A stretch of DNA of 64,000 nucleotides, taken from contig QPGO01000029.1 of the NCBI GenBank assembly GCA_008632985.1, positions 570,874 through 634,873 of the forward strand, in the 5' to 3' direction. The stretch is from Psammoneis japonica. Its lineage: Eukaryota. Position 1 is the stretch's first letter. Each line of letters starts with the position of its first letter. The notes under the pieces are model-generated. The model worked only from the letters and a program-made list of their open reading frames with translations. It ran no database searches and had not been told where the DNA came from. Position numbers and translations under genes: made by a program. This document shows positions 17,501 through 64,000 of this stretch, in pieces.

Positions 17501-17590
17501 CAGACTAGAAGTAGACACTGGCTGCTCCAGCAGAGAAGCAGCTGCTCTAGCTACTGCCAGCTAGAGAGAGCACTGCAGTGGCTACGAGTG
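17500..17590. repeat. Partially converted CTAG-family element at the right edge of block A
   Basis: gactagaagtag...ctgctccagcagagaagcagctgctctagctactgccagctagagagagcactgcagtggctac. Confidence 0.65.
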
Positions 17591-19958: not shown

Positions 19959-22695
19959 CTGCTATCTAGTGAGAATCCTTGTGAGAGGTAAATAGTTTCA
20001 AGATGCGTGACCGTTTAAGTTTGTAACGACCATATCAAGCGTTTGTGAATCTGATTTAACACGGGAATTGCAAGTGCTCATCGCATTTAGAATGTACCCT
20101 CTCAATGTAATAGCAGCGAGGTCAATGGCAATCGTGAAACAAGACTTGTCTCTCCCATGCGGGAAGAATCCTTTCATCAATTCATCCGCAAGTTGGGAGG
20201 CTTGATCTTGATCTCGAGATTCTCGCTTTCGTACGAAACCTGTGCGGGGTGCTGATTTGCTTGGTTCTAAGGGTGAGTTTGGGCATCGGTGATCTTGAGA
20301 CACGATGAGTTGTCCTCATAGACAGCAAATGGAGGCAAGTTGCCAGGGATGGTGGCCACTGTCTTGGAAAGCCTTCAAGTGAGTGGACAGCTTGTTGTGC
20401 AGTGATTGGGTTGCTTGAAGAACACAGCCTGGACAGGGTGACTTGAGACTGCAGCGTGGCTGGACACCCAGAAAACCACGCATCCAGCACAGAGAAAACC
20501 AAACAACCAGCTCAGAACTTGACAGACATTGGGTTGTCATGCCTGTCTTCAACGCCAAAAAGTCAGGCAACTTCCAAATCCACATGGCAATCAACTTGTT
20601 GGTCCTTGGATGGGGGTGGAATGAGGCCTTGACCTGCAGCACCCTCAAGATGATGATGCAGAGTGTGCTTGGCTGCTGGAGCATGAGACAAGGCTTGTTG
20701 AGCACATGAGAGTCATGCAATGGCACACCAACTGCAGAGCAACATTTGATGTCTTTGTCAAAGAGAGAACCATCCGCATTTGCTCCAGCAGGTGCAGGCA
20801 CTCCATTGTTTTCTTCCATCTTGGTGGCACATCAGGGGACCTTCTCTCAAGCACACAAAACTTGTTCAACCTTCCTTGAGCACACCAGTCTTGAGGGAAG
20901 GTGAGTGGAGGACCCACTCATGGCAGGTGCAAGTGTCTTGAAATGACCAACGCCAAGTTGCTGCTGGAGAGGTTGCTGCAAGCACAATGACACCAGGCTT
21001 TCAGCAAGTTTGGCACACCATCAAGCAATCTTTTGAGCTTGACAGTCCTTGTGCCTGGCAATGCAGTCAAGTCAGGGGTGCAAGGTTCCACAGCCCAGGC
21101 TTGACAATGCAACAGAGCACCCACTTTGATTTCCATGGCCTTGACCCACTCATCTGCATCTCATCAAGAGTCAACCAACCACCCAGCAGCAGATTGGTCT
21201 TGTTCCAAAGGGACATGATTTGTGTCTCCTCCATTTTTCCTGCTCTTCCATTTTGACATCTGCATCAGATGGCCAATGCAGAAGCAGCGCATGAGCCTGC
21301 AAGAAGCACCATGTGAGCTGCAGCAAGCTCATTCCTTTCTTCAATCAATGTTGCACCACAGCACTGATGAGCTCAAGAGTGGGTTTTTGCTTGCAGCCTC
21401 TGTCCTGCCCATCACCCTTTGTGGCTCTCCGACCAGAGCTCCTCCAGATTGCCCCAGACTTGGCCAGCTCCAGCTCAAGGTCTGGTGCTTCTTGTGGCCA
21501 TGTAAAAACCCACCAGAGATGAGCTTGTTCAAGAGCATGTCAGTCACTGGAGGAGGACAGCAGAGGAGGTGAGAACAGCAGAGGGTGCAGTCAGCCCATT
21601 GATTGTGCTTGATCATGAACATGACAAATGCCAAAAATGAAAGTGGGTGGCATGAGACAGAGAACAGAGTTGTTGCTTTGCACTGAAATGGTGCTGCCTG
21701 TCTTTTGTCTGCCCACCACTTTCATCTTTTCAAAAAATGCTGCAAAACATGCTGCTGCATGGTGCTGCATGGCACCCAGTGCTTCTTTGCAACCCCTTCT
21801 ACCCTCCATCAGATCCCACCCACCCCTTCTGTGCTGCAGATTCCCACAATTGTTCCAAAGCAAATGTGAAGGAGGTTGATTGACAACAAAACCAATGACA
21901 AAAACAACAGCTGAGTGCAAGAAGATGAAGAACAACACAACCATGGCCACCTCATCATCCTCTTTTTTGACATCACATGTGGTTTGTTCTTGTGGTTTGT
22001 GTGGGCTGCGGTCTTCTTGACTCTTGTCAATCTGGCAGTCTTTGTGGAGGTGGGCTCCAGCAATTTTGGTGATTTTCTTTGTGGTGTCACCTTGTCAATG
22101 CCTTTTTTTGTGCAGTGGCCATTTTTGTCTGCCTGGTGCTTGCACTGTTGCACAGCCACAATCTTGGTGGGGGCAGTGTGGTGGGTCCAGGAAACATTGC
22201 CTGTGCTGGAGATGTGGAGCAGCAATGTGGCTTGAGAATGGCATTGGCAAAGATTGTGGCAGAGGAAGTTGCCAGCCATCACTTGGAGAAAATTTACCCC
22301 ATCACTGCAGCAACAATGAAGTTTTCATCCCAGCCAATGTGCTTCCAGGCAGCAGGCAAGATGACAGAGGGGCATGTCCTGGAAGAGGCCAACTGGGTGG
22401 TCGTCCCTGCATTTTGGGTGACAATTTGGGCAAATGTTGAACCAGGGGCTTTTGTGACAGTCCAAGTGGAAGCTGCTGCTGTGCTGTCCAGTCAAGCACT
22501 GGCACCAAAGGCACTTGCCAGGCTCGCCCACCCCAAGACACCAGCAAGTGAGGCAGCAGGTGTTTTGAACCAGGAACACTTCTGCGGAGGCTTCTGGTGG
22601 AGTTTTTGAACCATGCACTCTGGACCCTCCTGGACACAGCAGCTGGGGTTGAGGGTGTTGTTGTAATGCCATCACCAACATGTGCCAAGATGGCA

Positions 22696-22798
22696 CTCCA
22701 GTTCAAAGTTTTCTTGTTGTGACATTGTTGGTGTTTGCTCTCCTTGCTCCAGTTCAAAGTTTTTCTTGTTGTGATGTTGTTGGTGTTTGCTCTCCTTT
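22696..22798. repeat. Tandem duplication, ~51 bp x2
   Basis: ctccagttcaaagttttcttgttgtga(CA/TG)ttgttggtgtttgctctcctt occurs twice. Confidence 0.85.
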
Positions 22799-25700
22799 GA
22801 AGTGATGCAATTGAGGACCCTGCAACACTGTGGCGTGCTGTTGCAACATGTGCTCCTCCTTTTTGACAAAAGCCCACTTGGTGTGCATGTTTTGGGTTTG
22901 TTCAATCTTCAACCCTGTCACAGTGGCACCAGTTGGGGCTTGTCCCCTGTCAGGAAATCAAGGTGCACCCTGTGATGGACACAAGCTGTTGTGCCTCAAT
23001 GGAAGTTGCAATCCCAGCCAGAGGAGTGACGCCAATGCAATGGAGTGCTGCTGCAACAATGGCAGCAAGATGTGTGTTCCTGGCAGTGCCTTGGAGCTGG
23101 CTGGGTCACGGCACACCGGTTGGAGGCTTCTGTCCATCACCACTCAATGGTGTCCTGGGTTCACCCTGTGCCAACTGCCAATGGAACATGCCAGACAACC
23201 AGTTGCAACTCAGCTGTGGGAGGTGTGTGGTGGAGTGCTGCTGCAACAAAAGCACACAGGCCTCTTTGTGGCTAGTTTGGCACCCAAGAACTTGGCCAGG
23301 AGGGTGGCACATTCTCTGGGCTTGAGGGGATGGAAGGGGTGGAGAGACTCAGCCAGCCTGCACCATGATGGGTCTTTGTGCCTCTTGGTTGACTGTTGTT
23401 GCAACATGACCAATGCCACATGTGCACAAGGCCTGTCAGACCAGGAAGGTCATTGTGTTGCCAAACACCTCTTTGTCCCAAGTCCAAGATGAGCATGGCT
23501 GACAAGAGCAAAACAAAAACAAGGCATCATCAATTTGCTGCCACTGTGCTGTCTTCAATGATGGAGGCTTGTTGTTGACTGTGTGCAGACAACAGAGCTG
23601 GTGTCCTCCACAAGGCAGCAGCAGGACTCCTCCCTTTCATTTTGTTTGATGCATTGTGTTGTGACAAGTGACAAGCCCCTGCAAAACATCACAGTTGCTG
23701 TGGTGTTGCACAGACTCTCTGCTGTGACACACAGAGTGCATTGAAAAGAGAACAAATCTGTCATTGACCAAAGCAGTGACAGCTGATTCATGTGAGTTTC
23801 CAAGACCATTGTTCCTTGGTCTTCCTCCTCCTTCTCATTCATCCTTGTTTGTCATCATTGGCAGTGTGATCAAGAGAGAATCAGCAGCATCACCTGCAGC
23901 AAGACAAGGACTTCAGAGACCATTGCTTCAATGAATTGTTTTCATTGCAAATGTCATTGTCAACAGGGACCTTCTCTCATGGATGCTCCACTTGCACCAG
24001 CACCATTGCTGTTGGGAATTTTCCTTTTTCTCCAACTCATTGGCAATCCTTGAAAGATCACACTTGTCAGGCAGATCATGCTCCAATGAAGTCTGGCCAC
24101 CTGACAAGCAGTTGAGTCCTTTTGTGGCCACTGGAAAGTTTTGTGCCAAGACAAATGTTGGCCTCAGTGATTTGTTGCATGACCATGTTGGGTTTTAAGA
24201 TGCCACAAAGTCCACCAGTGCAGCCTGCAAATGCAAATGATCAAGATGTGCAGTGTGCTTGCTTTCTGTGCTCAGAGCCAAGCACATGGAGGTGCATCAG
24301 GGCTCTAAAAATTGGGTGCTGTTTGCAGCAGGAGAACAGAAGAAACAAAAGGGTCCAAGAGCAGTTCTGCACAGCAAACAATGAGCTGGGCACAATGCTG
24401 TCTTTGTGGCCATTGTTTCTGGGGTTGTTGGCAGGAAAATTTTCCCATTTGTCACAGTGCCATCTTCCTCTTGTCAGGCAGAAGAAACAGGAGCAGGGGG
24501 TGCATTCCAAAGGTGCCTGGGCCATCTTGACCAAATCATCATCACAGTCATTGTTGCCATCTGTTGAGGGTGGTGCCACCCTGTGCTTGGCAAGGCAAAC
24601 AGCTGCAATTTTTTTTTTGGCTGATGCCTGTTGCAACATCAGTGGTCCTGTTCTCTTCCTTGCTCAATGGCTGCTTGATGGTTGTTCCAGAGGTGGTTGT
24701 GAAAGACTTCCCTCTTCCCCTTCTTTTTGTTCTTCCTCTCTGATCCATCTTTGTGAGTGATGTCTTGTGCCAGAGCCAAAGCCAAATTCTGTCAGGGAAT
24801 CTTCCTGTGATGATGGACTTGGCCCAGCTGAAAACAGAGCAGAGATGCAGAGCTGCTGTTTTTCACATGGTGGCACAGCAGGGCCCACACCAGAAGATTG
24901 ACAGCTTGGTGCAAGACCAAAGAATCTCAAGAATTGACTTTGGGTCATTTTCAACAACCAGACAGTCTGCCTCATCAGCAGTCTTGGGATCACAGAAATC
25001 AAATCCATCCCAATGTGAACAGACAAAAAGGCAAGTTTTGATGCACACCTTCAAACTGTGCATTTTAAATTTCCACAAAAAAATGTCTTGTGCACTGCTG
25101 GGCAACATTGCCACATGACTCATGACAGCATCAAAGAAATCATTTGGGTTTTTGCAGAATTTTTGCAAAGTGCAGGCCAGAAATGACTTGACAGCAGCAG
25201 GAGCTTCAGCCTCAATGACATCAAAGGTCAAGCAGGGTGTCAGCCTGTTTTCCAAGTGGTCATCAGCTTCTGCAAAAGCAGCACTCTCCAACCAAGGTGT
25301 GAAAGTCTCCTTTTTTGACCACAGTTTGCTGCATGACCACACAAGTGAAAGTGACAGTGGCAGCCAGGTCAACATCAAAAGCATTGTCACATTTGGTGTG
25401 CCACATTCTGGCACATGATGCAAGAAGTTCACCAGCCCAGGATCCTCTGGCAGCTTGGTTGTTGGGCTGGTGTGCCAGGTGGAACACTGGCATCTAGATC
25501 AGCAACAGCTGAGTCAACAGATTGACAGAGGGGTTGTCATGATGATCTGGAGTGCAGCAACTCATTGTGTGGAGCTCAACTTTCTTGGCAGCTTTGCAGA
25601 TGCATTTGTTGTGTCATCTCCTTTTTTGACCATTTTCATCAGTGTGGGTGGCTTCCTTCTTGATGCACTGATCTGGGCTTGGGAGGCTTGAACTCTTGAA

Positions 25701-25849
25701 GCAAGGAACAAAACACACCTGCTCTCATCACATTGCAGAGTTGCGCTCCCCTGCTTTTTTGATGTGCATGGGCCCAAAGAGCTGGGCACACATTTTCTCA
25801 TCAACATGAGTTTGTGTGCCTGTGAGCTTTCATCAAGATTGCTGTTGCA

Positions 25850-26200
25850 GCATGCCCTTCCAGCATGAGTGCTGAAAAAGTGCAATTTGAAGGGGTGTCA
25901 TCCCTGTGGTCAAAGTCACTTTTAAACTTTCATTGGCATTGTGCTGCAGAGCAACAAGCAACACACATCTCTGTGCAACCCCACAGTGGCGCAGTGCAAG
26001 GCCAAAAACCCACGGCACACATGTTGTCAGTGACGTCAGTGGCACGTGTGTTGCTTGGAGGGGATTGAGGTGCCCACAGTGCACATCTTTGTCTGCATCA
26101 GCTCCTGACTCCAGCAACAGTTGCACCTTGCAGCCACAGTTCCTTGTTTTGCAGAGAACTGCAGGCAACAGAGGTGCTCCTCCTGAGCAGGCAGCAGGAC
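25850..26200 (-). pseudogene. Decayed ankyrin-repeat gene fragment
   Basis: PLLPAVLC...KVQLLLESGADADK...NPLQA and ALQHNAN...GMTPLQIAL resemble ankyrin repeats. Confidence 0.55.
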
Positions 26201-26602
26201 AGTTCATGCTCACGTTGGCTCCAGCGAGAAGAGCACAAAACAACAAACATCTTCTGGAGGATCCACCACAAACTGCACACCTCTGAGTCAAATGACCAAA
26301 TTCCTGAGTTCCCTGTCTAAATTTACAGCCAACAAATGATGCCAAACTCCAACTTCAACAAATGATGACTGCTCTGCTTGGCTGACAATGTGAGAGTGTT
26401 GAGAATTCCCGGTGCAGTGTGTTTGCAGGTGAGACCAGCCACTTCACAGTTGACAAATGAAGTTGAACCATGGGCTGTGGTGGCAGATGCTGCTGGTGCT
26501 GCAGCCTGCATTTTGGAGCTGCTGTGGCTGTGAAGTTCAGAAGTTTTGGGAGCAGCATGCCGAAAAGGCTGAACAAGTGGAGCGTGCTCTCGTCGATCCT
26601 GT

Positions 26603-26704
26603 GCCCCAAAACCACAGTGCGATGTGACACAGCTGCAGCAGTGTGGTGCAGTGCCCCCCAAAACCACAGTGTGATGACACAGCTGCAGCAGTGTGGTGCA
26701 GTGC
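26603..26704. repeat. Tandem duplication, ~50 bp x2
   Basis: ccccaaaaccacagtg(c/t)gatg..acacagctgcagcagtgtggtgcagtgc occurs twice. Confidence 0.85.
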
Positions 26705-27331
26705 TGTGACCTGGGGCACTTGGCTACTTGGGAAAGTGGTGGCGATGAAGACTGCAGTCATCTTGCCAAGCAACAGGTCCAAAGTTGCCATTGTGCGCAC
26801 AGCACTTCACACGCGCCACTTTTTCTCGGCCGTTTCCCCAGCCTGGGGCAACTGCTGAGCCCAGGCTGCCCATCCACCCTGCCAGAACATGCATCTCAGC
26901 TCCTCCCTCTTCACACAGTGCCTGCTTCTTTTGTTCACTTTTCTTCTCTGTGTTTCTTCAGTGTGACAAAGTGAGACTCTCACGTCGTCTCGTCATCATT
27001 GTGGCGATCTCCTTCGCTCTTCCGCGCGCTGGCCTCACGTTGTGCGCGTAAATATCTGGCGCATTTTCGTTATCAGTCTACGCAGTTTCTACATACACGC
27101 TTTACATACTGCATTTCACGTACATTCTAGCGACATGATGGACAAAACGAAGGCAAAGATCGAAGCACGCAGGAGCGGCCATGGCGAGCGCTGCCGCTTG
27201 TTCTGTGCATCAAGCATCAAAGTGAATTTGAAGAGGTCTGCCGAGAAGGATCATAAGTTCAGATCCCAAATCGCAATCGATATCAAACTTTCATACGACT
27301 CGATTGTTGGCGTCAACCAGATCAAAGTGCT

Positions 27332-37440: not shown

Positions 37441-37579
37441 AGTGACGGTCATGTTGATTTTTACTATACTTTCCACTCGAAGCTGACTGCTGACATGTCA
37501 TATCCCCAAAATCCATACCAAGGCTCACTAACTCCTCGGCTACAATCTCCCCATCCATCTGTTATTTAACAACATTTTG

Positions 37580-40370
37580 AAAGTTGAGTCTGGTTTGTGG
37601 CACAACTTGAACGTGTGGGTGCGGGCACCTCAGCAGGTTTCTCGGAATCTTCACGGGGTTTCAAAAATGGCACAGAATCTTGAAGAACGTTCATCAATGC
37701 CTTGACTTGTCTAAAACTCTCGTTCCCCAATCTTTGGCCTTCCGCTCAATTGCAGAGTGACAGTCAGTCAGGCTTGGGTTCAGAAACAGCAAAACCTTTT
37801 CAAAAGGCAGGCTCGCCTGAGTCTTTGACAGCGTCGTCAAGCGCGTCGACATCTCCAAAACTCTCTTTCCCCAATGTCCAATGCTCAATTTCATCTTAGG
37901 GAGATGGTTGGACAAGATTGGGTTCTGAAGCAGCAAAAAATTACAGCGTTCCTGCAGAGCGCAAGCCTGAGTAAGGACTTGCGTGATGACGTCGTTCGAA
38001 ATTATGTCTGCAAGTTTCCACCAAAGCTGAAATGCTTCTGACTTTGACTCCAACAATGTGCTGTGCATTTCCAACAAGAAGGCTGACTGGATCTCCAAAA
38101 ATGTTGTGAACGCATCTTGCATCGGGAATCGGGACTGACTTGGTCTCAACCATGCTGTCGGGAGCAGTGTTGCAAAAAAGTTGCTGGATGCTGCCGTTGG
38201 AGTCGCCATTGTTGTCCTGCACAAAATGGCCAGAGACACAATGCTTGCTGGCATCTTTTTCTGGCACAATCATGGGCATGGCATTGTGCAGCAGTTCTTG
38301 GGCATGACTCAGAGACTTGTTGCCATCGTCAAAATGAGCGCAAAAGCTGGAAAGTGGCAGCGGCATTTTCGAAGGGTGCAGCACTGGGAGCAGTGTGTTG
38401 ATGATGATGTCCTGACAGCGGCTGAAGGCAGTTTTGATGCCAGAGAGCTTGGTTCTGTCAAAAAGCTTGCACAGGACATCTCATTTGATTGTGGTGATGC
38501 TGTCAGTTGCCGTGGTTGCCTTGATGGCCAAGGCGCTGCCACAGCACTTTGCCGAATCAACAAACAAGGCAGAGAGGCAGTGGGCTGGTGATGGCACCAG
38601 CATTCATGGCAGCAATGATGGCAAGGCCAAAGTTCATGATTTTCATGGCAAACAGTGAACTGAGGAGCAACCCAGATTCGAGTGAGAAAAGATTCTGTCT
38701 GCAAATTGAGGCGGCGACTTGGTGCAAAACCAGACTTGTTCCAGACCCAGGTGGTGCGTTCATGCCCGTTTTCGCACAAAAAAACGAATGTTTTGTGCTT
38801 TGTGCAACATCATCAACAATTTATTTAAATGATCACATTGATGGCTTTCAAGTGAAATGAACAGAGTAAATTCGAGCCAACAAACAGCCAAAATGGCACC
38901 ATGGCTTTCAGCGACCATGTCGGCCCACTTTTTTCAACCCCATGGAAAATTGAATGCCATGATGAAGACCGCAGCATTTGACATGGTCTGTGGCATCTGT
39001 CACAACAATGAAAATGCTTGATGCAGGCTGCAGCATGGCACAAGAAGACTCAATCTGTTGGCACCAACAATTGCGCCTCAATTCACTCACAATTTGCCTC
39101 CAAGGCACATTTCTTTTCCATTTCCATGCATGTTTCCTCAACAGCATGGATTCACACAAGTGTGTCAGTTGTTTGTGCCAATGAAACAGTGAAAAAGGGT
39201 CCAAAGTTGATGCCATTGCGTGCACTGAGCTTTGCTTCTTCTCATGCATTCGGAAACTCATCAATCAATGCATGTTTTGTTCAATCCGTTGAGACTGACT
39301 TGCATTCAAACAAATGGACAAAACATCATTTGTGTCACATTTGAGAGCACATTGTTTCATTGGAGTGACAATTGATGTTGTTTGTGAACACATGAGTGCA
39401 GTTGTAAATTGCTCATCGGAAAAAGAAGCTCTCATCTTAAGGCGCAATTTGGCGATCAACAACTTGGTCCATCCTCAGTTTCTTGTGCATGGGCACATGC
39501 ACGAGACCTTTCTGCATGTCAAAGCGACAAAGAAAAAAGACTCTGTGCAGATCTGCGCTGCATGATTCATCTTTAGAGGAGAAGAAGCTGTGACGCACTG
39601 TCTCTTGTCATTCCGAGAATGTTGAGAGGCGCTTTCATCAAATTCCCGTTGCATCCCGTGTTTTGTGCCTCTCGAGTCTACAAAGATGAGTCAGGTTCGG
39701 CTTCAATCACACCATTTCTCCACCTTGTCATTGAAGCCACTGCCACGGAGCTCAATGGTGGGACCCCCTGCTGCTGTCCACACAAAAGAATTTGCAAATG
39801 CATCGACCGCATGTCTGATGGCAACAAGATTCGAGACATTGCTGAACGAGATGGTTTGTTGTGTTCTCAGCACAATCCGATGAAGGAGAGGCAGACACAG
39901 AAAGCCAATGCTGCCTCTGAGCCCAATGCAACACGTCAAAAAGGAAAGGGAAAAAGAAAGAGGGGTGGAAAGTCAATTGAAAAACAACCCAAGAAAGCTT
40001 TTGCCGGCAAAAAGAAGTTTGCAGGAAAGAAAAAGCCGAGGCAACAACAAGAGAACACAAAACTTGCACAAGCAGCCAAGGACAAAAGTGGACAAAAATC
40101 AAGAAACTGGCGCTGAAGAAGTGGTGACAAGAAACAAAGAGAGCTGTCATTGCAGGATCTTTTTGAAGACGCCCGACTGCCATGCTCAAGAAAGATCTGC
40201 AAAGAACTGAGGCAGCTGACTGATGCCAAAATTGACCACTGAACAGCACCTCAAAACAATTCCAAAGAGCATGATCAATTGCTTGAATGGCACAGTGCGC
40301 TCACAAATTCTGCCCTCCAGCCCTGCTGAAGTGGCTGGTCGCTGTCTCCAAAGCACAAGAAGTCGAACCG
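37580..40370. other. Block C: TpA-erased but CpG only partly depleted; relic coding sequence
   Basis: 38041-38820 contains 0 TA and about 21 CG by hand count. Confidence 0.85.
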
Positions 40371-40530
40371 GTGCTCTTTGCTCTAGAGCAGCAGCTGTGG
40401 ATGCTCTGCTCTCTGCTCTAGCCCTCTTTAGAGCAGGCCTGGCAGCTGCTCTCTCTAGTTCTACCGGTGCCTGCTCTGCTCTCTCTACTAGCTACTCGAG
40501 CTACTAGCTAGCTAGAGCCTCTCTCTCCAT
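40370..40530. repeat. CTAG-family element with a conversion gradient at the right edge of block C
   Basis: Left part reads gcagcagctg/ctctgctctctgctc; right part reads ctctactagctactcgagctactagctagctagag. Confidence 0.75.
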
Positions 40531-51722: not shown

Positions 51723-51929
51723 TGCGATGGCAAGTTGTGATCAGCAAGCCAACTGCTGTTCTTCAATGGGAATCGAGACTAAATCCACCGCTAGAAGAAC
51801 GAGTTTGTGTCATCGCGGTGGCCGGTGGGTCGCCGCGCGGTGGGTCCAGGTCCGTCTCTCGTCGTTTCTATCTGGGTTGGGGGTGCGGGCTGAGCTCACC
51901 TTGGTTCCGTCCATCCATCCATCCGATCC

Positions 51930-54230
51930 ATTGTGATGACAAGGACAAAGGACAACACCCCACATCATGAGATTCAATTCTTTGGAATGAAGACAGCCTT
52001 TGCATGCCTGCTTGTTCAAAAATTGTGTGCCAAACATGAGCTTTCTCTTCAAAATGATTGCGCCAATGAACCATGAATCACAGGACAAAACAACAGCACA
52101 GCAGCTTGGCTGGCAAAATGTTCAACCAGAATGAAAGCAATGCAGCAATGTCAGATCTCTCGTCCTTGAACAGTGGTTGAAAGCAAAATCAGACTGAGTC
52201 TGTCCATGCAAAACTTGCTTTCCACTTCCACAACAACCAGCCTCTCAAATCTTAAAAGATGGCTGCACAACAAGCACGACACTCCATTGAGCTGTCAGGC
52301 TGGATGTTCTGACCTGACACCAATTAAACCCAGAGCTTTGAAAATGTGGTGATGTGCCCACCTGAGTGGAATTGGCTGGCAAAGCACTTCAGAGACTTCT
52401 TCAGACAATTGTTTTTGCTGTTGGCTGGCATGCAGCAAGAAGTTGCCGCCATGACTTGCACAACTGAGATGGTTGGCGATGATGCTGCCACACCTTTCCT
52501 TGTGCAAGACAAATCATCTGAGGTGCAAGGTCAAATGCAGAAATCATGCAGGAGCACACTTTGAAGTTGAAGGGAGTCCAAGAAGACCCATCACACTGAC
52601 ATGTTGTCTCTTTTGCAGGTTGACACTGGTGCTGTTTGCAACAAATGGAGAAGAGTGCAAACAGCATTGTCTCCAAACAAGGAATGTGAAAAACATTGCT
52701 GCCTCTCAACACCTTGCAATTGTTTGCAAACAAGCCAACAACCCAAGGCAGGCATCATGATGGATTCTTGTTTGCCACACTTGAAAGCAATGAATCTTTT
52801 CTTGCTGTTTGCTGATTCTTGTTTGCTGCATTTGAAAGTGACAAATCATTTGCTGTTTGTTGCTGTGTTTGACCCATGCATGGACTGTTTGTTGTTGGCA
52901 TTTTTTGCAGAGAACAATGTGTCACATTGCACTCCACATGAGGCAACAACTTGACTTGCAACATGTGGCTGTGTGACAGCTTTGTTGCTTGTTGTTGTCT
53001 TTGACTCTCTTTCACCCCCTTGGTTGCCTTTGTTTTTGCAGATCATGTGAGACTGTTGTTGCGCTCCTTTTTGTTGTTGTGCTGCTGCTGCAATCTGTGG
53101 TGACCAGCATCATCATGCGCATTGATGAGAGTGAGAGAGCTGCATCCTGTGGGTGTGTCTTTCCTTGCAATGCAATGCATTCTCACACATGCATCCCTCC
53201 TCACAATCCAACACATTTTTTTCAACTTGCTGGCAGCAGCAGAAGGTGGCCAAGGCAGTCAGTTGCCAACAACTCCTCTGTGCACCATTTCATTGGGCAC
53301 ATGTCAAATGTCCAACAATCAAGTGGACTTCATTCACACACATGGCAGCAAGCACCTTGGGCATTTGAGGATGCTGACTCCACAAATTGCACCAACAACA
53401 ATGATGTCAGCTCTTTCCACATCTCCTCAAGCTGAGAAATGCCAGCCAACTGAGTGTGGGCACATGTTGTGCTCAAAATGTGTCCAAACTGCAGGTGCCA
53501 TGAAAATTGTTTTGTGTGTCACTGCTCACTTAAATCTTTTGCCAATCATTGCTGGAAGCAACAACACAACCTTGTCCATTCTTTCCACAGAATCAGCTTG
53601 GCTGCCAACAAAACTTGTTCAAACAAGGCACTCATCTGGAATTGGCAAAGCAACCAAGAGCTGCAGTGCACTCACAAGCCTGCCATCTTCAACTTCTTGC
53701 CTTGCCTTCACTTCAACTCCCTTTCTTTGCATTCTTCTTCCTCTGCCATCAGCAATTTGATTGGCACCTTTCTCTTGATCTTCTCCTCTGCTCTCCCATC
53801 ACCGTGTCTCTCTGCTGGAACAACTGTCAAATGATCGCAATGTCCTCTCTCTCCACAAACTCAAATCAACAAAAGCCAACTTCAGAAGTTGTGGGTGTCA
53901 GTTTCAATGACTTCAACAAATTGCTGAGGAAGACTTTGGTTGCTCAAGTGGATGTGTGCACAATGTGCTTTCATCACATTTGATGGAACCCACACTGAGT
54001 GCCCCATTCTCACCACCAAGGTTGGCCAGTTTGTCGTCAACAGGAGTTGATGCATCTCTGTCACCATCAGGAAAATCTCTGCAACACACAAGCCAGAAAT
54101 GGTTCTTAGTTCTCAACATCATCATCAAGCAATGAATGCTGGGCAACTTCTTTTTATGGGATTGCTGTCATGCTGTGGGCTGATTGTGCATTGGACAACC
54201 CTGAAAACATTGCACACTGGACAACTCTTT
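51930..54230. other. TpA-erased, CpG-depleted block D
   Basis: TA and CG rare, TG/CA saturated, ORFs Tyr-free. Confidence 0.85.
52763..52859. repeat. Tandem duplication (~50 bp) with reciprocal CA/TG differences
   Basis: gattcttgtttgcCAcacttgaaagCAaTGaatc versus gattcttgtttgcTGcatttgaaagTGaCAaatc. Confidence 0.85.
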
Positions 54231-54300
54231 TAAAACAGGATTGCTGTCACGCTACCGGTGCGCGGGCTGATTGCACATTAGATGACCCCGAAAACAGTGC
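54140..54300. repeat. Tandem duplication (~80 bp) straddling the right edge of block D
   Basis: ggattgctgtca...gggctgattg..catt.ga..accc.gaaaaca starts at 54159 and again at 54238. Confidence 0.8.
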
Positions 54301-54567
54301 TCCGTCAGTGACGCAAACGAACGCATAAGTTCTTCATATTCACACATGCAGAACAACAGTCATCGTGCGGCTTTCTCCCGAGGCGAAAGCGCTTCCGTAA
54401 TCTCTTTTCTTCCTGATGTCTGATTCAGCAAAACTCTACAGTAGGTACACAAAATCAAAGCATAGAGATTGCTAAATCTCCACCAGAGTATGTGTTTAAA
54501 TGAAGATACGTCTTCTTGTAGCATAGATGATTCAGTCAGTAAATCGTGGCTCTTCCGCATTCTCAAG

Positions 54568-55734
54568 CTAGTCCTTCTTCTTTGCGACTGCAGCTGCGGA
54601 ATGAAAGACGCATCCTGTGACCATCCCCACAGTCACCAGGACGCCTCCAACAATGCTTACGAGTGAGCTCAGAAATACAAAAAAGTTGTCTCGATATTCC
54701 ACATGATGAACGGTCAAGGGTGTAAAATCATACGCAAGAGCCAAGCCTGGTAGTATCTGGCTATTCTGACTCACAAGGTACTCGGGCTGCACCATGTGCT
54801 CTGTCACAGAGGCCTGGTACATTTCTCTCTCGGAAAAAAAGCGCTTGTACCGTGTCGGGACTAGCCTTACATTGATGTTTGCAAGGCCAACACCCCCTGC
54901 ATCATTCTCGACAATGTGGGCGGTATTTTTCAAAGGGTCGTGAGTCAAAGGAAACGGGGCACCAAAGTGAATTGAGTGAACATAGTGGCTGCAACCAAGA
55001 GCACGTGTGAGAACGAAATGGAGCTCCTTGACATATATGGGAGATGAAAAGCAAATAAAAGCAGTCCATTCTCACCTTATGTTGAAAAGCTGGATTCTTC
55101 CTTGTAAACGACCGTCCGGTCCAGCCATATGCAAGTTTCCAGTTGCGAGCCTCCAAGCACGATGAGATACCGTAGCCGTAAATGTGCCTCCTACCTTGGC
55201 AATATCAATCATTCCTTTAATTGTGCACCCCCCATGCGAGTACCGTTCTGGGTCTTTGAATAGTGCTCCAAGTTCACGAAGCGTGGGCTTTCTCAGTCGC
55301 AGTGCGTTGTTGCCGTGAATCTGTTGGAACTTCCCCGTAGAAAGGTATGCGTTATCGTGAGCGCAGTCCATGTCTGCACAAGACATATGAGGAAAGGTTA
55401 CATGTACATGCAAGAAAATGCGACCTTCTCGTTCGTTTGGCTGGGCTAAGTGTTGTGCACTCGGGAGAATGGATATAGGCGAGGAATCAGAGAGACGTAA
55501 GGAGTGCCGAGTTGTACCAGCGACGTAAAGATAAACTTGAGCGAGGAAGAGAAGCCCGGCCGTACCAGCAGCAATGACAGTGATTAAGCCTCCTGTTTAC
55601 AGGAAAGATACGTAATGCATCAGTTACACACAAAAGTTGAACGACAGCAACAATTTGAACGAAGCTGTACCTAGTGTTGAACGAGTCTGAACATCATTCC
55701 TCGGTTTGGTAAACGTATCCATTGGACTTATCAT
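54568..55734 (-). CDS. ER-Golgi vesicle protein of the ERGIC3/Erv46 family; introns 55593-55670 and 54989-55075
   Basis: DTFTKPRNDVQTRSTLGGLIT, VTFPHMSC, GCTIKGMIDIAKVGGTF, FNISHYVHSIHFG, PGLALAYDFTPL, FLSSLVSIVGGV and a C-terminal dilysine KKKD. Confidence 0.88.
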
Positions 55735-57343
55735 CTTCACAGTTCCCTCCAATGGTCGCGACGCAGGTTAATGGTATGGAAAACTACTTGTAGGCGAGAC
55801 AATGACGGTGACTTCAGCCCGTGCTGTCATTGTGGGGGCGTGCCGGTCGGAAGTCGGCGGCGCAGTCGGCCGAAATTCTACTCTTTTGCCACCGTTTTCG
55901 AAAAACACAGAAAACGCAGAAAAGGGACGTCTTTTATCAAAAAATCAATCTCGAGCACGACGCATGACAGGCTGAGGTCCATCTGTCAATCTATCTTGCC
56001 ATCTTGCTTTGTTGGTTCGCTCTGCCTCTGGCACAGCACTTTGGAGGAAGTCTAGCTGCTGCTGCAGTGCTCGAGAGCAAGTGGACGGAAATGGAAGCTT
56101 CGTGCTTGGTCGTGTCAATGAGCAGCGCCACGACCTCACAACACCACCACATCTCCTGACTTTTTTTGCACCTGCCAGCTTGCTGCTCCGATCTCCAATG
56201 CTTTGTCACCATTGCTGGAACTTTCATTGCCAAACAGAGGTGCGGGTCCATTTGAGCCTCTTTGCCATTTTCTCTTCTCCCTCTCCTCTTTTTGTGTGCT
56301 CTGGTGCGTGCCTGACCTTGACAGAGAGAAGCCCCCATTTTCAGCCTTGCTCACATCACTCACTGTGCCCTCAGCTGCTTTTTCCATTCTCCTTTGTTCT
56401 TGTCATCAACTCCAAGGCATGCCTGACATCTTGTCTGTGAAAGAGTTGACTGCACTTGTTTTCTTCTTTGGATGGCTGTGCAGCAGCTTGGTTGATGCGG
56501 CACATCTTTCTCTGCGAAGAACAAAAGAAGACACCAAGTCACCTCAGTCATCCCACACCATTTCCACACATCTCTCAAAGGGAAACCTGCACCCACCTTG
56601 GGAGCATCAGGGTCATCAACTTGAGTGCCAGTGGGGAAGTTCTTGCCAGGAGACAGAGGGAAAAAGAGAGCGGGAGGACTGCAGCCCCTGCATGCAGTCT
56701 TCTGGAGACGCTCTGAGCAGAGCAACATGCAATCACACCATGGAACCCTGTTGTGGAACAGCTGCAACTGCACCATGAAGTCACACAGCCATCTCCCAGA
56801 GGCCTTGTTGGGCCATTCACAGCATCAGGTGCCTGGGGCAACTTGGGATGAAAATGCTCATCAAGCTCAAGCAAGGTTCTTGTCTTGCAAAAGACCTGAA
56901 GACAGCAAGGCCAGTTGAGGCTGGGGGGGTGCAATTCCCAGCCTCTTTTGACAAACACCCACAAGAGATGTTGTGCCATCAGCTGGCATCATCACAAGCC
57001 CAGCATGAATGGAGGTGCAAGCTGGGTCACTTTTGTGTGATCCAAAAGGTCCCCTGACAGATCTCATGGTTGCTTGGTGCCAGGCCACCAAAACATGGAA
57101 GCCAGCAAGGCTGCATTGTTGTCCAAGAAAGGGGAAGCTGTGACCAACAAGACTCTGCACAAGCAACCACAAGCTCAAAAATTGTGAGCAGCCTCTGCCA
57201 ACACCCACACTGGTGGAGCTGTGCAGCAGCCTGTCAACAACCATCAACGTGCTTGAGCTCTGGGTGGGGCCTCACAGCTCTGGACTGCAACACAAGTGTT
57301 TTTTGATCATGTGCCACATGTGCATTGCTCAAGCACATTTCCA

Positions 57344-57368
57344 TGTGTGTGTGGTGTGTGTGTGTGTG
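57344..57368. repeat. (TG)n microsatellite
   Basis: tgtgtgtgtggtgtgtgtgtgtgtg. Confidence 0.8.
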
Positions 57369-58779
57369 CTCTTTTACAAAAAATTGCACTGACTTTGTGT
57401 TTTGCAAGACAGCAAGTGCTTTGGTTTTGCTGTTTCTGGGAACAAAAACAAGCTGGTGGCTGCACTTTTCAATGTCTGCAAAATGCAGCTGAGCACACCA
57501 GAAACAATGCACTCAATGCATGAACGATCATTGTCATTCACAAATTTGCCACTTTTTGTGGTGGTGTGGTGGTTGGCGTGCCCACTCAATTCTGCACATG
57601 AGCCACGCAACAGCAGAGTTGTCATGGGGTCAACAAACTGGGCATGCCAAAAGGACAAAAAGGGGCAAATCTGTGAGCCATCACAGTCATCTGCACTTGG
57701 GGCACATTGGCATTTCTGGCTTGCCATGGTGCACTCTTCAGACTTTGAAGAATGTGCCTGGTTTGATTTTGCTCTCAGCAGTCATCAGAAATGATGGAGA
57801 ACAAAATGCTGACAGCTTCACAAAACAGGATTTGTCACAGCCCAGTGCTGCAATGCAAAATCCCACCCAGAGCTGGAAAACACACTGATGGCTGTTGACA
57901 GGCTGCTGCAGCAGCACTGCAGGCAAAGGCAACAGCTGCCAACAATTTCTGAGTTTGGCTGCTCTTGACAAGTCTGTAAAATTGCTTCTTTGTGACTGCT
58001 GTTCTTTCCCCACTCTCCCACTTCTGCCACCCAACATGGTCACAGCACTGCTGTCCAGTGGTCCAGCAGCATGCTGCAGCTTTCCTTTTCTTGCCAAAAT
58101 GCAGCCTCAGTGGCTTTCACTTCTTGGCCTGGCAGCAACAACTGCGAGGTCCACCGGGCAACCCATTTTGATCATGAGAAAGTGTGGCCCAGTTCATGCT
58201 CATTTGTGCTGGTTTTCTGACAATGCTTGCTCACCCTTGCCTTTTTGCTGAGTGTGAAATCTTTTTGCAAGAAAGTGTGCATGGAAAATGCATGCTCAGC
58301 ATGTGGTGCACAATCAAAAAACATTCATGTTGCACCCCATTTCTTTGCGGTCCCACCCACAGAGCTCAAGTGCTCTCCACAATGGAGAAACAACACACTG
58401 TGACCATTGCAGCAGGATCCATCACACCAACAGTCACAAACAAAGGGAGCAGTGATGACATCATGTGCTGTCACTGGCAGGCAAACACAGCACATTTGAG
58501 AAAACATGGGGAGAAGCAGGCGGGACACAACACACTCCAACCAAGCCCAGTTTGGTGTGTCCAGCTGTGCACAGACATGACATGTTTGTGGAAGTGCAGC
58601 ATGATGAAATTTGAACAAAATCAACTCATGAGTTCAGTGTGCATGTTAGAATGACATTGTCAAATCCACACCCATTTTCAGCCCCAGTTCCACGCCAGCC
58701 AGGGGCATGGCTTGCCGGGAGCACAAACAGAGAGGGGGGTTGTTTCACAGCATGGAGGAGACCATTCTCATGAGAAAGA

Positions 58780-58802
58780 GGAGAGAGAGAGAGAGAGAGA
58801 GA
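58780..58802. repeat. (GA)n microsatellite
   Basis: gagagagagagagagagagaga. Confidence 0.85.
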
Positions 58803-61800
58803 CAACACCACATGGGTGCTGGAGTGATGAGAGTCAGAAAGAGCAGAGCAGACAAAACCCTCCTCCTCCCCAGTCACACAGCAAGCAGCAGATGTTGCAC
58901 CCAAGAAACAGGAAACCCAAAGAAGCCACCGGGGCAACAATTTTGCAACAAAGCTGGTTGGTGCTGCAGTGGACAAAGGCTGCAACTCCTGACATGCTGG
59001 CTGTCAAGGAAACAATGTGGACAGGTTTGGTCAGGCCTGCCTCCTGGTGGGTGGGATTGTTTGGCATCTGCATGTCCTTCAGGAAGTGCTGCACCGGTGC
59101 CCTCTGCTCTCTGGATGCTCTGCAGTGGCAGAGCCCTGTGGCTGGAGCAAAGAGTGGCATCCTCTCATTGCTTGGCACTCAGAGTCTGCTTCAGAGGGCT
59201 GAAAGCTCATGTGTGTGAGTGATTGAGCACATGGGGTTTTAACACGCTGTGTGCGATGGACAAAATTTTGCTGTGCATGCACACTGAACTTGTTTTGGCT
59301 GACATCCACCCACATTCCCAGCCACCACTCTAGTGAGACACTGCAGACCCTGCAAATGTTTTTCCTTCTAGCACATTTTGAGTTGCACACATTGAAATTT
59401 TAATCAGAAGGATCTTGACAGAGCACTCAATTAAAAAAGAACTGGCTTCAACTCTGTCTTTGGCAAATGCCATGTTCCATCACTCCACGCCAGCTCTTTG
59501 ATCACATTGACATGCCAACAAAACAATTTCTTTGTCCTCACAGAAACATGCTCCTGCCTGTGGCTCCTCATCCCAGTGTCAACCAGATTTGTGTGGCTTT
59601 GTGACAGTTCCAGCAAAGTCTCTTTTCCAGCATTTCAAAAGATTGTGAGGGCAACAGGACCAGCAGCAATCACACAGATCAGTCATTCCAGGGGTTTTTG
59701 TGAGACAAGTTCTCATGGTGTGTTTGTTGCATTTTGTTCATTTTCCACCACCAGCTTGACTTGTCTGTTTTTGGGAGGAACAAACAAACATCAGCCCCGC
59801 TGCAGTGTCCTGGGCTCATTCTTGTTCCTGTGGAGCTTGGCATGATTTTTGAATTGTTCTGACATGCACTCGGCTTTTTTGTTGTCATTCAGGACCAACT
59901 CCAGTGGCATTTTGAAGCAATCTGCATCATCAGTGCATGCAATGGAATGGCTGGCAAGCTTTTCCAAAGGTCTGACAGCAAATGTCTGGACTCTTTCTTG
60001 ATGTTTGCCACTCTTGTTTGGTCAGCTGCATCAAAATTCAAACACAAGCCTCTGCTCCAGCACAGCAAGTGTTGCACAAGTGTGTTGAATGGTTTGTCAT
60101 TGAGCCATTCACACAGCCCCACACAAACTGATGCAACATTTCAATGCTTTGGCATGAAAAGACTTCATCATGTCTTGATGACATGGTTGCATCAATGGCA
60201 ACATCTTCCTCATTGTCAACAAATTTTCAAAAACAATGTTGATCACACGTGCAAATCTGGAACCTCGCTGACATCCCCAGAATCACGCAGAGCATGGCAC
60301 AACAAGAGAATCTTGCTTTTGGGAGTGATTGCATGGGGAGTGACAGGGGCAATTGGCGGAGCACCTGTCAAGTAGTGTCCTCCTCATCACTCTGTGCAGA
60401 AGCACAACATCCCCCTGCTCTGCTTCAAGCAGTTGCCAATGTTGTTGAGAAAGTCAGCTGCCATGTTGAGAGACTGGAGCATGATGATGGAGAATTTCAA
60501 AATGCTGTTTTTTTCTGGGGGGAGTATCTCAGCAACAAAAAGGTCTCAAAAGCAGTGTTGGCATTGAATCCCTGAGGACACAGTCCATCAGCAGATGCAA
60601 ATTGAGTGAGGTTTTGTTGAATGAGCACCTGTGCAACTGCTGCATTGAGAAATGGCCCCTGCAACTTGGTGAAATGAGTCATCTCATTGCTGCTGCTGCT
60701 TGTTCACAACTGGATTTAAGAGTGGACTTAAGATTGAGAATCAAACTTGAGTCAATGTTTGACCTGCACCCTGTGCTGAGCCCCCCCCCCTTGAACAACA
60801 TCTTCAATTGCCATCTTGCTGCCACTGCTGTGGACCAAGTGTGTGCTTGATGCCATCCTGAAGTGACTCAAAGTCATTCACACAAAATCCATCTTTCTCA
60901 TGAACAAGAAAAGAAGCTCTGAATCTCTTCAGCACACTGCTGTTGCACCCTGCATGGCTCTGCCAATCACCTCAGTGCTCTCACCACCATTCACACCTGC
61001 AACTGTGGCTTTTTCATCATTGTGAGAAAGCAAAAAAAAAACAGAAATGACAGCAGCATGTGGCAGCAGCAAAAGTCATGTTGGTTGCAAGCAACCATCA
61101 ACAATTGTCAATGGCACAAGTGCAGTTGAAAAAACATCAATGACAAAACAATGCAGGCCCCAATGCAGCCACAGCTGCATGAGGTGGCCACCTGAGCTTT
61201 GCTGACTTCATCATGGTGCATGACCATGATTGGCCAAAAGTGGTGGGCAGGGGAAAACATGCTCAATGCACTCATCATGCCAACCGCCCACATTGAAGCT
61301 CTTTGCTCAGTTTAAACAAAGATCTTGTTTCCAAATGGCAGATTTTGTCACATGCTCAAATTGTGACATTTGACAGTTTTGTTGTGTTCTTTGCTCTCTT
61401 GTTCAAGGTTTCTGTGGCCTGTGTGTGCTGGCATGGCCTGGGAGAGATTTGATTCAGTTTGGTTTTCATTTTGGTGCACATGACACATCTGTTCATTGGA
61501 GTTCTGCAGTCATGCCAAAATTTGGCATGCTTGATGAGCTCCATTTCTTCTCCTGGGCTCTGTTGTTTGCTCTGTTTCAGGGGTTTCAATGGGTGGCACA
61601 TGCCCTGAGAAGCAAGTTTGATTGAGTTTGCTTCTCACCCATTTGTCAGAGCCTTGTTGTCAATGTCACCCATCCAATGCTTGAGCTCTGTTTCTTCTCC
61701 TTGGGCCAAGCTGTTTGTTTTTCTTGTGTTCAAGGTTCTTGTGGCACACCCCAAGAAGCAACTTTCATTGAACCCCCACTTGTTCAATTCTGGCACATGT

Positions 61801-63654
61801 GATTTGTGCCTGTTTGTTTGAGTCTTGCAATCAATGCCACTCATTTTAAACTCCAGCACTTGAGTTCTCTTTCTTTTCTTTTGCATTTGGCTTCACCACA
61901 GCCTTCACTTTTCCCTTCAGCTATTGTCCAGGCCAAAAGCTGTGGAGAGTTTTTTTTTGCCTCATCACTGGAAATTGGGGCAAGGGAGTGGCGCCACTTG
62001 AGGGCAAAACAATTTGAGCTGGAACTGACATCACAGCCAACTGCTTCAGTGTTGACTCACAGTTTTTTCATGTGCTTCTGCTTCAGTGAGTTGCTGAAGG
62101 ATTGCAGCCCATCATGGCATGTCAGCCATTGCATGTTTTCTTGTTTCTTGGCAACTGCATTTTGCTTTTCTGAAACTGCTCACTTGTTGTTGAGTGCAAC
62201 AAAGTTGCCCTTTGTTGATGCAGCAATTTTTTGTGCAGTTGCATCTTTTCTTGTGCATCTTGTCACTCATGATGCCCTTCTCCATTGCACTCATTTGGAG
62301 CTGAAAATCTGGCTTTGAGATGGTGCTCTGCATGCTCTCTCCATCATTGAAACCCTTTTGTCTGCCTGGTTGTCATTGCAGTGCTTTGACTTCATGTGTT
62401 GCAAAAAGGGCTCCCTGTGCCAATCTGTTGTGAAATGTTTGCAGCTGTGTCAGGAGGATGCTGGTCCCCTCTTGATGACCTGTCAGCCAAGCTGTTTTGG
62501 AAAATCAAAAGACTTTGGAATCTGTTTGTCAAGCATGCACTGAGCATGCAATTGAAACAAAAAAGATTTGAGTGTCCACCATGGCAACTTGTTGGCTAAA
62601 TCTGCAACAGAATGGCTGCTGCCATGCTCCTGCCAAACATGGCACCAGAAGTTCTTGTGACAAGAGCTTTGCTTTGCAGAGCCAGAAGAGATGTCAAGCA
62701 TGACAAACACAAGCTCTGTCATGTTCATGCATTGCCCCCACTGGTCAAATTCTCCTGCTCCTTTGTGCAAGTTCTGAAAGCATCTTTCTAAATCTGGCTG
62801 CACTGACTGAAAGGACTGAGAGTTCAAGAAATGTGCTGTTGTCCTCTAAAAGTTCATTCAACAATGACCCAGCATTTTTCAATGCCTTTTCTTCAAGAGT
62901 GCATGCAACTGCTTGGCAAATGATGCTCTTCCTCTGCACACCCCTGCTCTCAATCACTTTTTGTGGCCAACAAGATGACAAAATGGGCATGTCCAACCAC
63001 TGCTGGAACTTTGAGGCAAGAGGCAGTTTTCACAGGACAGACAATGTTGCAGTGAAGGACACACTGATGATTGTCAATGATGTGGTGAATTTGCATTTCT
63101 GGCTCAGGTTGAGTTGTGGGTCTTGTGATCACTGTTTGGCTTCTGCACCCAGCCAACATGGCAGTGGTGGTCAATGGCATCAGGAATGTGTTTGCAAGCC
63201 ATGTGGTGAGGTTGGGGTTGGTGAGACCAAACGTGTGCCAGTCCTCAAGCCTTGACACTCCAACACAGCAGCCAAAAAGGCACAGCACAAAACTCAAAGA
63301 AGCAGCATCATTCAAAGGAAAGGCTGCCTGGGAAGTCATCGGGGAATCCAAAGGCACAGGCTGGAAAGTCATCAGGAACCCAAAGGGGCAACTCATGTTG
63401 GCAGATTGTGGCAAACAAGCTGGCTGAACAAGGGCAAAGAAACAGTCTCTGGATGGCTTTGCTGTGAGAAAGCTGTCAAGGGTCCTCTGCTGAAAGAGGG
63501 TGCAGCACGGTTGCAATGGGCTGGAACAACATGGGCAAGGATGCAGCTGAGTGTGGAAGCACAAGAGGCTCAAATGCTGAGTCAGCTCATCAGGCAGATG
63601 GTTGCACAGCACCACAAGGAAAATTGGTGAGTGTGTCAGAAGAAAGTTTGGCCC

Positions 63655-63737
63655 AGAGATGCATGCACTGGCATCTCTGAGGCAGGAGAGCATGCCAAGA
63701 GATGCACGGACTGGCATCTCTGAGGCAGGAGAGCATG
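63655..63737. repeat. Tandem duplication, ~43 bp x2
   Basis: agagatgca(tgc/cgg)actggcatctctgaggcaggagagcatg occurs twice. Confidence 0.85.
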
Positions 63738-64000
63738 TCAAAAGAGCTGGAGCATCTGTTGGGAGATGCCACATCAGAGAAGGACAAGGCAACCTGGGGC
63801 AAGCATCAATGCAGTCACCATGTGAAACAGAGTGTGATCCACAAGACACAGAAGGTGAAAGGCATTTAACACAATTGTGGGACAGTGCACAAATGCTGTC
63901 CACCACAAGGTTGAAGGAGTGACAGAGTTGCAAAGGAGTGGGATGTGATGACAGCACTGTTGGAAATTCTCATGCAGATCTTGTTTGGTGCAAATGAGAA

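Follow-up and report, generated by a model that had tools for sequence, protein, structure and literature searches.

Which process has stripped the dinucleotide TpA from parts of a diatom genome, and what allows a few TA steps to persist there? The question is raised by a 64,000-nt stretch of Psammoneis japonica DNA (contig QPGO01000029.1, positions 570,874 to 634,873, forward strand; hereafter the window), in which five intergenic TA-poor blocks, designated A to E, occupy ~22 kb of the 64 kb, or about one third. A reading of block E from its letters only had proposed that the TA sites left there are mostly YTAR, the context in which neither strand presents TAY, and that a mutator with an enzyme-like preference for the A of TAY (or the T of RTA) had consumed the others. 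We asked how far this rule holds across the five blocks, what the lost TA became, and which processes could account for the pattern.

TpA-depleted blocks and the context of their surviving TA sites

The blocks were placed by a two-state hidden Markov model (HMM), run on TA and on CG, and are supported by 500-nt counts, in which TA and CG are nearly gone from five stretches and TG+CA is almost doubled (coordinates in Table 1). Within the block cores (20,555 nt), the observed/expected ratio (o/e) is 0.03 for TA (48 sites), 0.15 for CG (171 sites), 1.90 for CA and 1.83 for TG; the rest of the window, with the same base composition, has ratios of 0.60 for TA and 1.00 for CG. TA density is 1.7–4.3 per kb in every block, ~4–11% of the 39 per kb found in non-block DNA. 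The depletion is confined to five discrete HMM segments beside normally evolving DNA, and the block edges are sharp: a TA-normal spliced gene is separated from block D by 380 nt and from block E by 231 nt. K-mer contigs from a DNA sequencing run carry the blocks at a depth of ~60–70, the same as the flanking genes, and the sequence is therefore present in the reads and no assembly quirk; this run may be the source of the assembly itself, and its contigs differ from the window by ~0.3%. Most block DNA is single-copy at a likeness of at least 88%, and most of blocks D and E is at single-copy depth.

The sequence-only reading had counted about 15 of about 20 TA in block E as TTAA, CTAA, TTAG or CTAG. 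We found 15 of 21 between 55950 and 64000, and the six TA it had singled out (59241, 59332, 60718, 61314, 62790 and 63868) are all correctly placed and all YTAR. The skew was evaluated against four expectations for the YTAR fraction: 0.34 from the blocks' own flank composition, which is the most generous; 0.175 from the TA sites of all non-block DNA; 0.20 when only non-block DNA outside open reading frames (ORFs) is counted; and 0.22 for survivors newly arrived from TG/CA steps. Against 0.34, block E alone is skewed with p = 5e-4. The skew is replicated in the cores of blocks A–D, where 18 of 29 sites are YTAR (A 5/6, B 7/13, C 3/7, D 3/3; p = 0.002 against 0.34), with B and C not individually significant against this null. 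Across all cores 32 of the 48 survivors are YTAR (p = 4e-6 against 0.34 and 7e-14 against 0.175), and RTAY, which presents TAY on both strands, accounts for 1 of 48 against an expected fraction of 0.27 (p = 6e-6). Most survivors lie at T-run/A-run junctions. These counts confirm the sequence-only observation and show it to recur across the window's blocks.

To express the context dependence as survival, non-block TA sites were taken as the starting distribution. Survival is ~23% for YTAR, 3.6% for sites presenting TAY on one strand and 0.4% for RTAY, and thus declines with the number of strands that present TAY. In a two-rate model, the base 3' of each A determines how fast that A is lost, and the two strands are treated as independent. 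The fit gives kY = 2.62 and kR = 0.74 and predicts 1.3 RTAY, 14.3 one-sided and 32.3 YTAR survivors, where 1, 15 and 32 were observed; the likelihood ratio of two rates over one corresponds to a chi2 of 65 (p = 7e-16). Four separate rates at +1 fit better than two (p = 8e-6), in the order T 3.6 > C 2.1 > G 1.3 > A 0.4, such that G is near neutral and A strongly protective. No ATAN site survives where ~222 would be expected without loss on the scaled baseline, and TTAA stands at 19 against 37.

The +2 position also contributes. A occupies it in 61 of the 96 strand-symmetrised half-sites, against a background of 26%, and the half-site TAAA is 6.2-fold enriched (39/96), being carried by 33 of the 48 survivors versus 12.6% of baseline sites; TAAA/TTTA junctions survive best. 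Ranked by the Akaike information criterion (AIC), the models run from one rate (193) through A at +2 only (133), Y/R at +1 only (129), AA only (106), Y/R plus A at +2 (86) and Y/R/AA (84) to four +1 rates plus A at +2 (70), which is the best model. Adding Y/R at +1 to either A-tract model improved the fit with p values from 1e-6 to 3e-12, and the ranking was unchanged with the non-ORF baseline. Modelling the poly-T/poly-A junctions therefore does not bring the survivors down to background and leaves the Y/R term significant, although these junctions make up the largest single part of the context effect. The proposed TAY preference stands in its direction, which is seen in the survival order and in the shift among products described below. 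YTAR/TAY does not stand as the full rule: because the effect at +1 is graded and A at +2 protects, we refine it to T-A-(T>C>G>A)-(not A).

Three of the 19 block E survivors differ in the DNA-run contigs, among 40 of 70 differences listed: a GTAG that reads GCAG, so that this site is TA/CA polymorphic (Table 1), a CTAA that reads CTGA (62597-62598) and a transversion (60525-60526). These differences hint that the survivors are still hot, the contigs coming from one sample and from a run that may be the assembly's own source. With 40 of 70 differences listed from that sample, the polymorphism spectrum is too small to resolve context.

Products of the loss, strand symmetry and the separate decay of CpG

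If TpA was converted rather than avoided, its products should be present. By context class, the gain of TG+CA over non-block DNA and the loss of TA+CG roughly agree, at 50.5 versus 47.1, 27.9 versus 23.3 and 14.3 versus 17.6 per kb. This mass balance, together with CA/TG doublets between duplicated copies, provides the footprint of TpA to TpG/CpA change, that is, of A:T to G:C transitions. The copies of a tandem duplicate in block D differ by three such doublets and those of a second duplicate in block B by another (Table 1), each at the same step. A diverged inverted repeat in block E, recovered by a transition-blind search in purine/pyrimidine space, scored 60, where the highest of 5 simulations reached 38; its arms align with 206 matches, 56 transitions, 18 transversions and 8 CA/TG doublets. 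Such doublets are most simply explained if both copies inherited a TA or CG and each then lost it on its own, to TG or to CA; on the strength of these differences the depletion is taken to be mutational. The two copies of a 43-nt tandem duplicate in block E (63651-63745) show TG in one and CG in the other at one step (CATGCAC versus CACGGAC), a CpG/TpG difference between young copies.

The products also carry information on context. If the A before Y changes, YTAY becomes YTGY and RTAR becomes RCAR. Measured against the rest of the window, which is assumed here to represent the former state of the blocks, the gain is 33.7 per kb for YTGY+RCAR and 16.9 per kb for YCAY+RTGR. The corresponding predictions are 33.3 and 13.9 if only TAY is attacked and CpG decays regardless of context, and 23.6 for both groups under a context-free rule. 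When the six non-palindromic context classes are taken separately, the TG-minus-CA gains follow the predictions from the survivor rates with r = 0.93, and the squared error falls from 35,270 under the context-free rule to 7,310 with survivor-derived rates. The YTGY+RCAR share is higher than in non-block DNA in five of five blocks (pooled 0.615 versus 0.580, p = 2e-4).

The two strands have contributed equally. TG and CA counts are balanced in each block (A 268/270, B 786/777, C 281/293, D 266/271, E 911/930), and the autocorrelation of neighboring steps does not exceed 0.12 in absolute value over the lags tested, or 0.08 at lag 1. We conclude that both strands were mutated equally and site by site, a pattern that speaks against a transcription-strand bias and against an edited intermediate of single-stranded RNA or cDNA.

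CpG behaves differently. The 171 surviving CG are distributed over YCGR, mixed and RCGY contexts as 41/80/50, near the baseline fractions of 0.20/0.54/0.26, and all NCG trinucleotides are near expectation (0.91–1.10). CG density ranges from 5.0 per kb in block E to 27.3 per kb in block C, against 59 per kb outside, which corresponds to a survival of 8.5% to 46% between blocks. Because CG survival varies while TA stands at ~4–11% everywhere, the two losses are separable: TA loss is the faster and is saturated, and CG loss is graded and context-independent. The CpG loss is most simply read as decay of methylated CpG in silenced DNA. In the pennate diatom Phaeodactylum, loss of DNMT5a is reported to remove methylation and to de-repress young transposons (PMC9998398). 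Deamination of 5-methylcytosine in silenced, methylated DNA converts CG to TG/CA irrespective of flanking bases, and the CG loss seen here likewise shows no dependence on flanks; such decay would account only for the CpG half of the pattern and cannot remove TpA.

A candidate mechanism and its alternatives

We consider it probable, if by no means secure, that the five blocks are the end product of a locally confined TpA to TpG/CpA mutation process, with the residual TpA representing slow contexts and with a separate CpG decay. In this proposal an A:T to G:C change would occur at either strand of a TpA step, at a rate for each A that is set by its 3' bases, T > C > G > A at +1 and lower again with A at +2. 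Since the strands would act independently, RTAY would be wiped out and one-sided sites nearly so, and YTAR would persist, above all at TTTAAA-type junctions. The CpG decay would be separate and slower, most simply 5-methylcytosine deamination. The agent would most likely be an adenine deaminase acting on DNA, with T-A-Y-(not A) as its recognition word and able to reach either strand equally well within a marked chromatin domain. The flanking preference that the sequence-only reading had called enzyme-like is supported in its direction by survivors and products alike. The composition, mass balance, context dependence, strand symmetry and sharp edges are observed directly, whereas an enzymatic process, adenine and not thymine as the base attacked, and whatever directs the process to these blocks are inferred.

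A system with the same signature has been described in the chlorarachniophyte Bigelowiella natans. In mutation-accumulation lines, two integrated viral regions were reported to have acquired 231 new mutations, of which 230 were A-to-G or T-to-C changes that all fell on TpA, and the genome is described as containing 124 TpA-depleted, CpA+TpG-enriched clusters, with an ADAT2 homologue proposed as the agent (bioRxiv 10.64898/2026.01.13.699255). As described there, the two systems share A:T to G:C change only at TpA, yielding TpG/CpA, in discrete regions beside normally mutating DNA. They differ in host, a diatom (stramenopile) in the present case, and in the extent of depletion, a TA o/e of 0.03 here against a rho of 0.45 reported for the B. 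natans nucleocytoplasmic large DNA virus (NCLDV) region and a virophage region in which TpA is above the genome-wide level (9.2% versus 6.0%). CpG is also lost here, and the main text of the preprint contains none of the words CpG, context, trinucleotide or flanking, although its Table S2 (231 sites) may hold contexts. Finally, the B. natans process targets integrated viral DNA, whereas viral or transposon genes are not recognisable in the present blocks. Literature searches on diatoms turned up neither TpA loss nor A-to-G hypermutation, and the preprint was the sole TpA-restricted case found.

The alternative that survives best, which we regard as unlikely, attributes the pattern to DNA shape: TpA beside an A- or T-tract (TTTA/TAAA) would be structurally protected, and the Y/R pattern at +1 would be a by-product. 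AA at +1 and +2 is the strongest single feature, both in its half-site enrichment and in the proportion of survivors that carry it; the AA-only model outperforms the Y/R-only model, and the GTAA survivors are mostly GTAAA(A). However, Y/R at +1 improves the AA-only model (p = 1e-6, or 8e-6 with the non-ORF baseline), and the survival order T < C < G persists among half-sites that do not carry AA, with TT, TC, TG and TA surviving in 3 of 890 cases and GA, GC, GT and GG in 23 of 734. A at +2 moreover protects after G and C, which are not A-tracts.

Less likely again is that the T of R-T-A is the base attacked, for example by a TET/JBP-like enzyme that oxidises or hypermodifies the thymine, which would subsequently be read as C or repaired to C. 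Given the strand symmetry, every count fits "T preceded by R" and "A followed by Y" equally. 5-Hydroxymethyluracil is enriched at TpA in dinoflagellates, but we know of no pathway that converts modified T to C at high yield. Deamination of adenine, in contrast, gives A to G directly, and a deaminase is also favored by the authors of the B. natans study.

It is highly improbable that the survivors are recent arrivals by ordinary mutation, from TG/CA steps or at T-run/A-run junctions, against a removal that is itself context-free. Blocks of different CpG age do share a TA floor of ~4–11%, which suggests a steady state, and the window and the run contigs show one TG/TA difference, at 63576. Arrivals would nevertheless be expected to be 22% YTAR from TG/CA, or 34% by flank composition, where 67% was observed, and ~25% RTAY, where 1 of 48 was observed, and a skew of this kind requires context-dependent removal even at steady state. 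TA and CG dinucleotides are avoided in some viral and host RNAs, and dense base modification could mislead some sequencing chemistries; selection against these words, or a base-calling or assembly artefact at modified bases, is nonetheless scarcely credible, because neither Pfam nor purine/pyrimidine periodicity marks the blocks as coding, duplicate copies resolve the same step to TG versus CA with gains matching losses by class, and contigs from the run that may be the assembly's source reproduce the blocks at gene-level depth.

Several points weigh against the adenine-deaminase proposal itself. The process is known here from its sequence footprint and not from an enzyme, a base modification or a new mutation. 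The context models rest on 48 survivors, the five-parameter model was chosen after the data had been seen, and the fitted rate for TAAA is about zero or slightly negative; instead of recognition by an enzyme, the TAAA effect could reflect DNA shape, or non-coding DNA may have been richer in T/A-tract junctions from the start. Both the survival fractions and the product test use non-block window DNA as a stand-in for the ancestral composition of the blocks, and the product shift is modest as a proportion and, for blocks taken singly, does not reach significance in E (p = 0.12) or C (p = 0.42). The blocks have no recognisable transposon or virus genes, which leaves a "genome defence" label unproven. 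Coding periodicity is likewise absent in transition-blind purine/pyrimidine space: the 3-nt signal averages 1.10 in the blocks (null 1), with 1 of 60 windows above 6, against a mean of 3.7 in the rest, where 18.5% of 124 windows exceed 6. The blocks are therefore non-coding now and are not recently intact coding DNA changed by transitions alone. Lastly, none of the windows in 62 related metagenome loci around DMAP1 homologues (426,620 nt), a small and gene-centred sample, had a TA rho below 0.2; three reached 0.21, all with normal CpG. From this sample the process is not obviously universal in diatoms.

Other known mutators resemble the proposed deaminase in part. Repeat-induced point mutation (RIP) of ascomycetes also makes irreversible transitions at one dinucleotide on both strands of bounded, silenced tracts and leaves a dinucleotide signature. 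Fungal RIP was rejected as the cause since it acts in the opposite direction, making TpA from CpA, whereas TpA is depleted here and CpA and TpG are in excess; it also needs duplicated DNA, whereas most of blocks D and E is present at single-copy depth. To our knowledge, RIP occurs solely in fungi. ADAR-type editing through an RNA intermediate was rejected on the lack of strand-coordinated runs and on the +1 order of T > C > G > A. The 3' preference of ADAR is for G, the opposite of this order. ADAR does change A to G with a 5' U preference, a parallel that the B. natans authors themselves draw, and is described by them as metazoan (10.64898/2026.01.13.699255).

The parallel that the sequence-only reading had drawn with TadA holds as a motif resemblance, in the 5' T, which is present by definition, and in the pyrimidine at +1 (kY 2.6 versus kR 0.74), and goes no further. 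Native TadA is reported to depend on UACG, and TadA-8e to prefer UA (PMC12296453). TadA and ADAT2 act on RNA loops or exposed single strands, whereas both strands of long genomic tracts are affected here, without strand runs. T exceeds C at +1, and although the present rule, like UACG, extends to +2, it is "not A" there rather than G.

A broader proposal, to which we give less than even odds, is that diatoms have a both-strand DNA adenine deaminase targeted to chromatin domains, an "A-to-G RIP" reading T-A-Y-(not A), that erases TpA until silenced intergenic or foreign DNA can no longer be recognised, beside the decay of methylated CpG, and that the same or a convergent system in Bigelowiella makes it widespread among stramenopile, alveolate and rhizarian (SAR) algae. 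If this is true, genome defence by adenine deamination would be a widespread trait of SAR algae. The window adds a second, ecologically major lineage with the TpA footprint, at saturation, in a pennate diatom, and separates the CpG loss from it as context-free and slower. It also supplies a quantitative fingerprint, comprising the +1 order T > C > G > A, protection by A at +2, independent strands, no strand runs and sharp edges. Any candidate deaminase or thymine-modifying enzyme must reproduce the whole of it, and the question of which enzyme is responsible thus becomes directly testable on oligonucleotides. A natural both-strand genomic A deaminase would be of interest to base-editing research. 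For annotation, the consequence is that repeat and transposon searches will miss such blocks unless they are transition-blind.

Contents of the blocks and the surrounding window

Table 1. Coordinates of the blocks, repeats, example survivors and adjoining gene in the window.
Feature	Coordinates	Strand	Description
Block A	15191..17505		TA-poor (6 TA); CG partly lost (48 CG, 20.7 per kb)
Block B	20320..27048		TA-poor (13 TA) and CG-poor (45 CG)
52-nt tandem duplicate, block B	22696..22797	+	CA/TG doublet, GACATTG versus GATGTTG
Block C	37568..40383		TA-poor (12 TA); about half of CpG kept (77 CG, 27.3 per kb); no CG-poor call from the HMM
Block D	51793..54106		TA-poor (4 TA) and CG-poor (24 CG)
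51-nt tandem duplicate, block D	52763..52865	+	Copies differ by three CA/TG doublets in 51 nt, at the same step
Spliced gene between blocks D and E	54486..55823	-	Normal TA and CG content; run X2 contigs, intron 54989-55075
Block E	56054..64000		19 TA and 40 CG in 7947 nt; continues past the window end
Inverted repeat arm 1, block E	56981..57276	+	Diverged; found by purine/pyrimidine-space search
Inverted repeat arm 2, block E	57854..58231	-	Found by purine/pyrimidine-space search
Surviving TTAA, block E	59240..59243		Inside GGTTTTAACACG; one of 19 TTAA among the 48 core TA
Surviving GTAG, block E	60372..60375		TA at 60373-60374; GCAG in the DNA-run contig, TA/CA polymorphic
Multi-copy part of block E	62677..64000		Summed contig depth 433-628 versus ~60-70 elsewhere; many diverged contigs

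The blocks were searched for residual genes and for one another. No match above the curated Pfam cut-off was found in 114 block ORFs (29 in E, 85 in A–D); one weak RING-like match (E = 0.0017, 18.8 bits versus a cut-off of 27.9) fits Cys-rich TGY codons. Six further ORFs, five of them in block C, gave nothing above the cut-off when scanned at E up to 1, the best match being on the sixth ORF, which lies outside the block. The longest ORF, of 339 aa at 62950-63969 on the minus strand, has no homologue among 859 candidates. Among the five blocks, blastn returned just one short inverted match, inside block E, and an exact-seed search in purine/pyrimidine space returned nothing; a gapped search in the same space gave cross-block scores of 31–35, within the simulated maximum of 38, and recovered the block E inverted repeat and the tandem copies. 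Spliced, cDNA-like contigs of run X2 do not cover 52005-54005 or 56007-64000.

The exception to the lack of periodicity is 37801-38700 in block C, which scores 7.9. The left part of this block (37568-38700) combines the 3-nt periodicity with retention of about half of its CpG, and contains two minus-strand ORFs (37694-38269 and 38309-38779) that have no Pfam match. The sole Atlas lead (0.79) connects 37694-38269 to gamma-tubulin complex C-terminal domains. The left part of block C may be a coding gene caught in the hypermutated zone.

In block E, the segment from 62677 to 64000 is a multi-copy family, represented by many contigs of 88–95% likeness with many internal joints, and is the sole clearly repetitive part among the block parts compared. 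Block E also contains two microsatellites, (TG)13 at 57344-57368 and (GA)16 at 58772-58802, and the DNA-run contigs break at both.

The remainder of the window carries ordinary genes. By Pfam scan, the long ORFs outside the region flagged by the sequence-only reading encode DMAP1, a SAP-domain protein, a PHD/DDT protein, a protein kinase and APC1; a deaminase domain was not found among the 15 window ORFs scanned. The best named relatives of the DMAP1 protein are from pennate diatoms, at 44–70% identity among the matches listed, and include Phaeodactylum (58%), Fragilaria, Nitzschia, Cylindrotheca, Mayamaea, Fistulifera and Pseudo-nitzschia. The window is therefore pennate diatom nuclear DNA, with no close relative among the named entries. 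Four long ORFs outside the blocks (479–1044 aa; 3586-6720, 7377-9341, 12406-13845 and 32119-33600) have no Pfam family above the cut-off, the first of them giving a weak coiled-coil-like EzrA match and nothing else. A tRNA scan found 0 tRNAs and an Rfam scan 0 families.

Between 49973 and 50704, around the intron at 49950-50062, the window differs from the contigs of both runs by a cluster of substitutions and seven insertions of 1–2 nt, which could represent a second allele, a paralogue or a local assembly error. Run X2, although listed as "DNA?", behaves like cDNA over the part of the window from 44001 to 56006: its contigs skip 45394-45471, 49950-50062 (GT..AG) and 54989-55075, which confirms three short introns, in APC1 and two neighboring genes.

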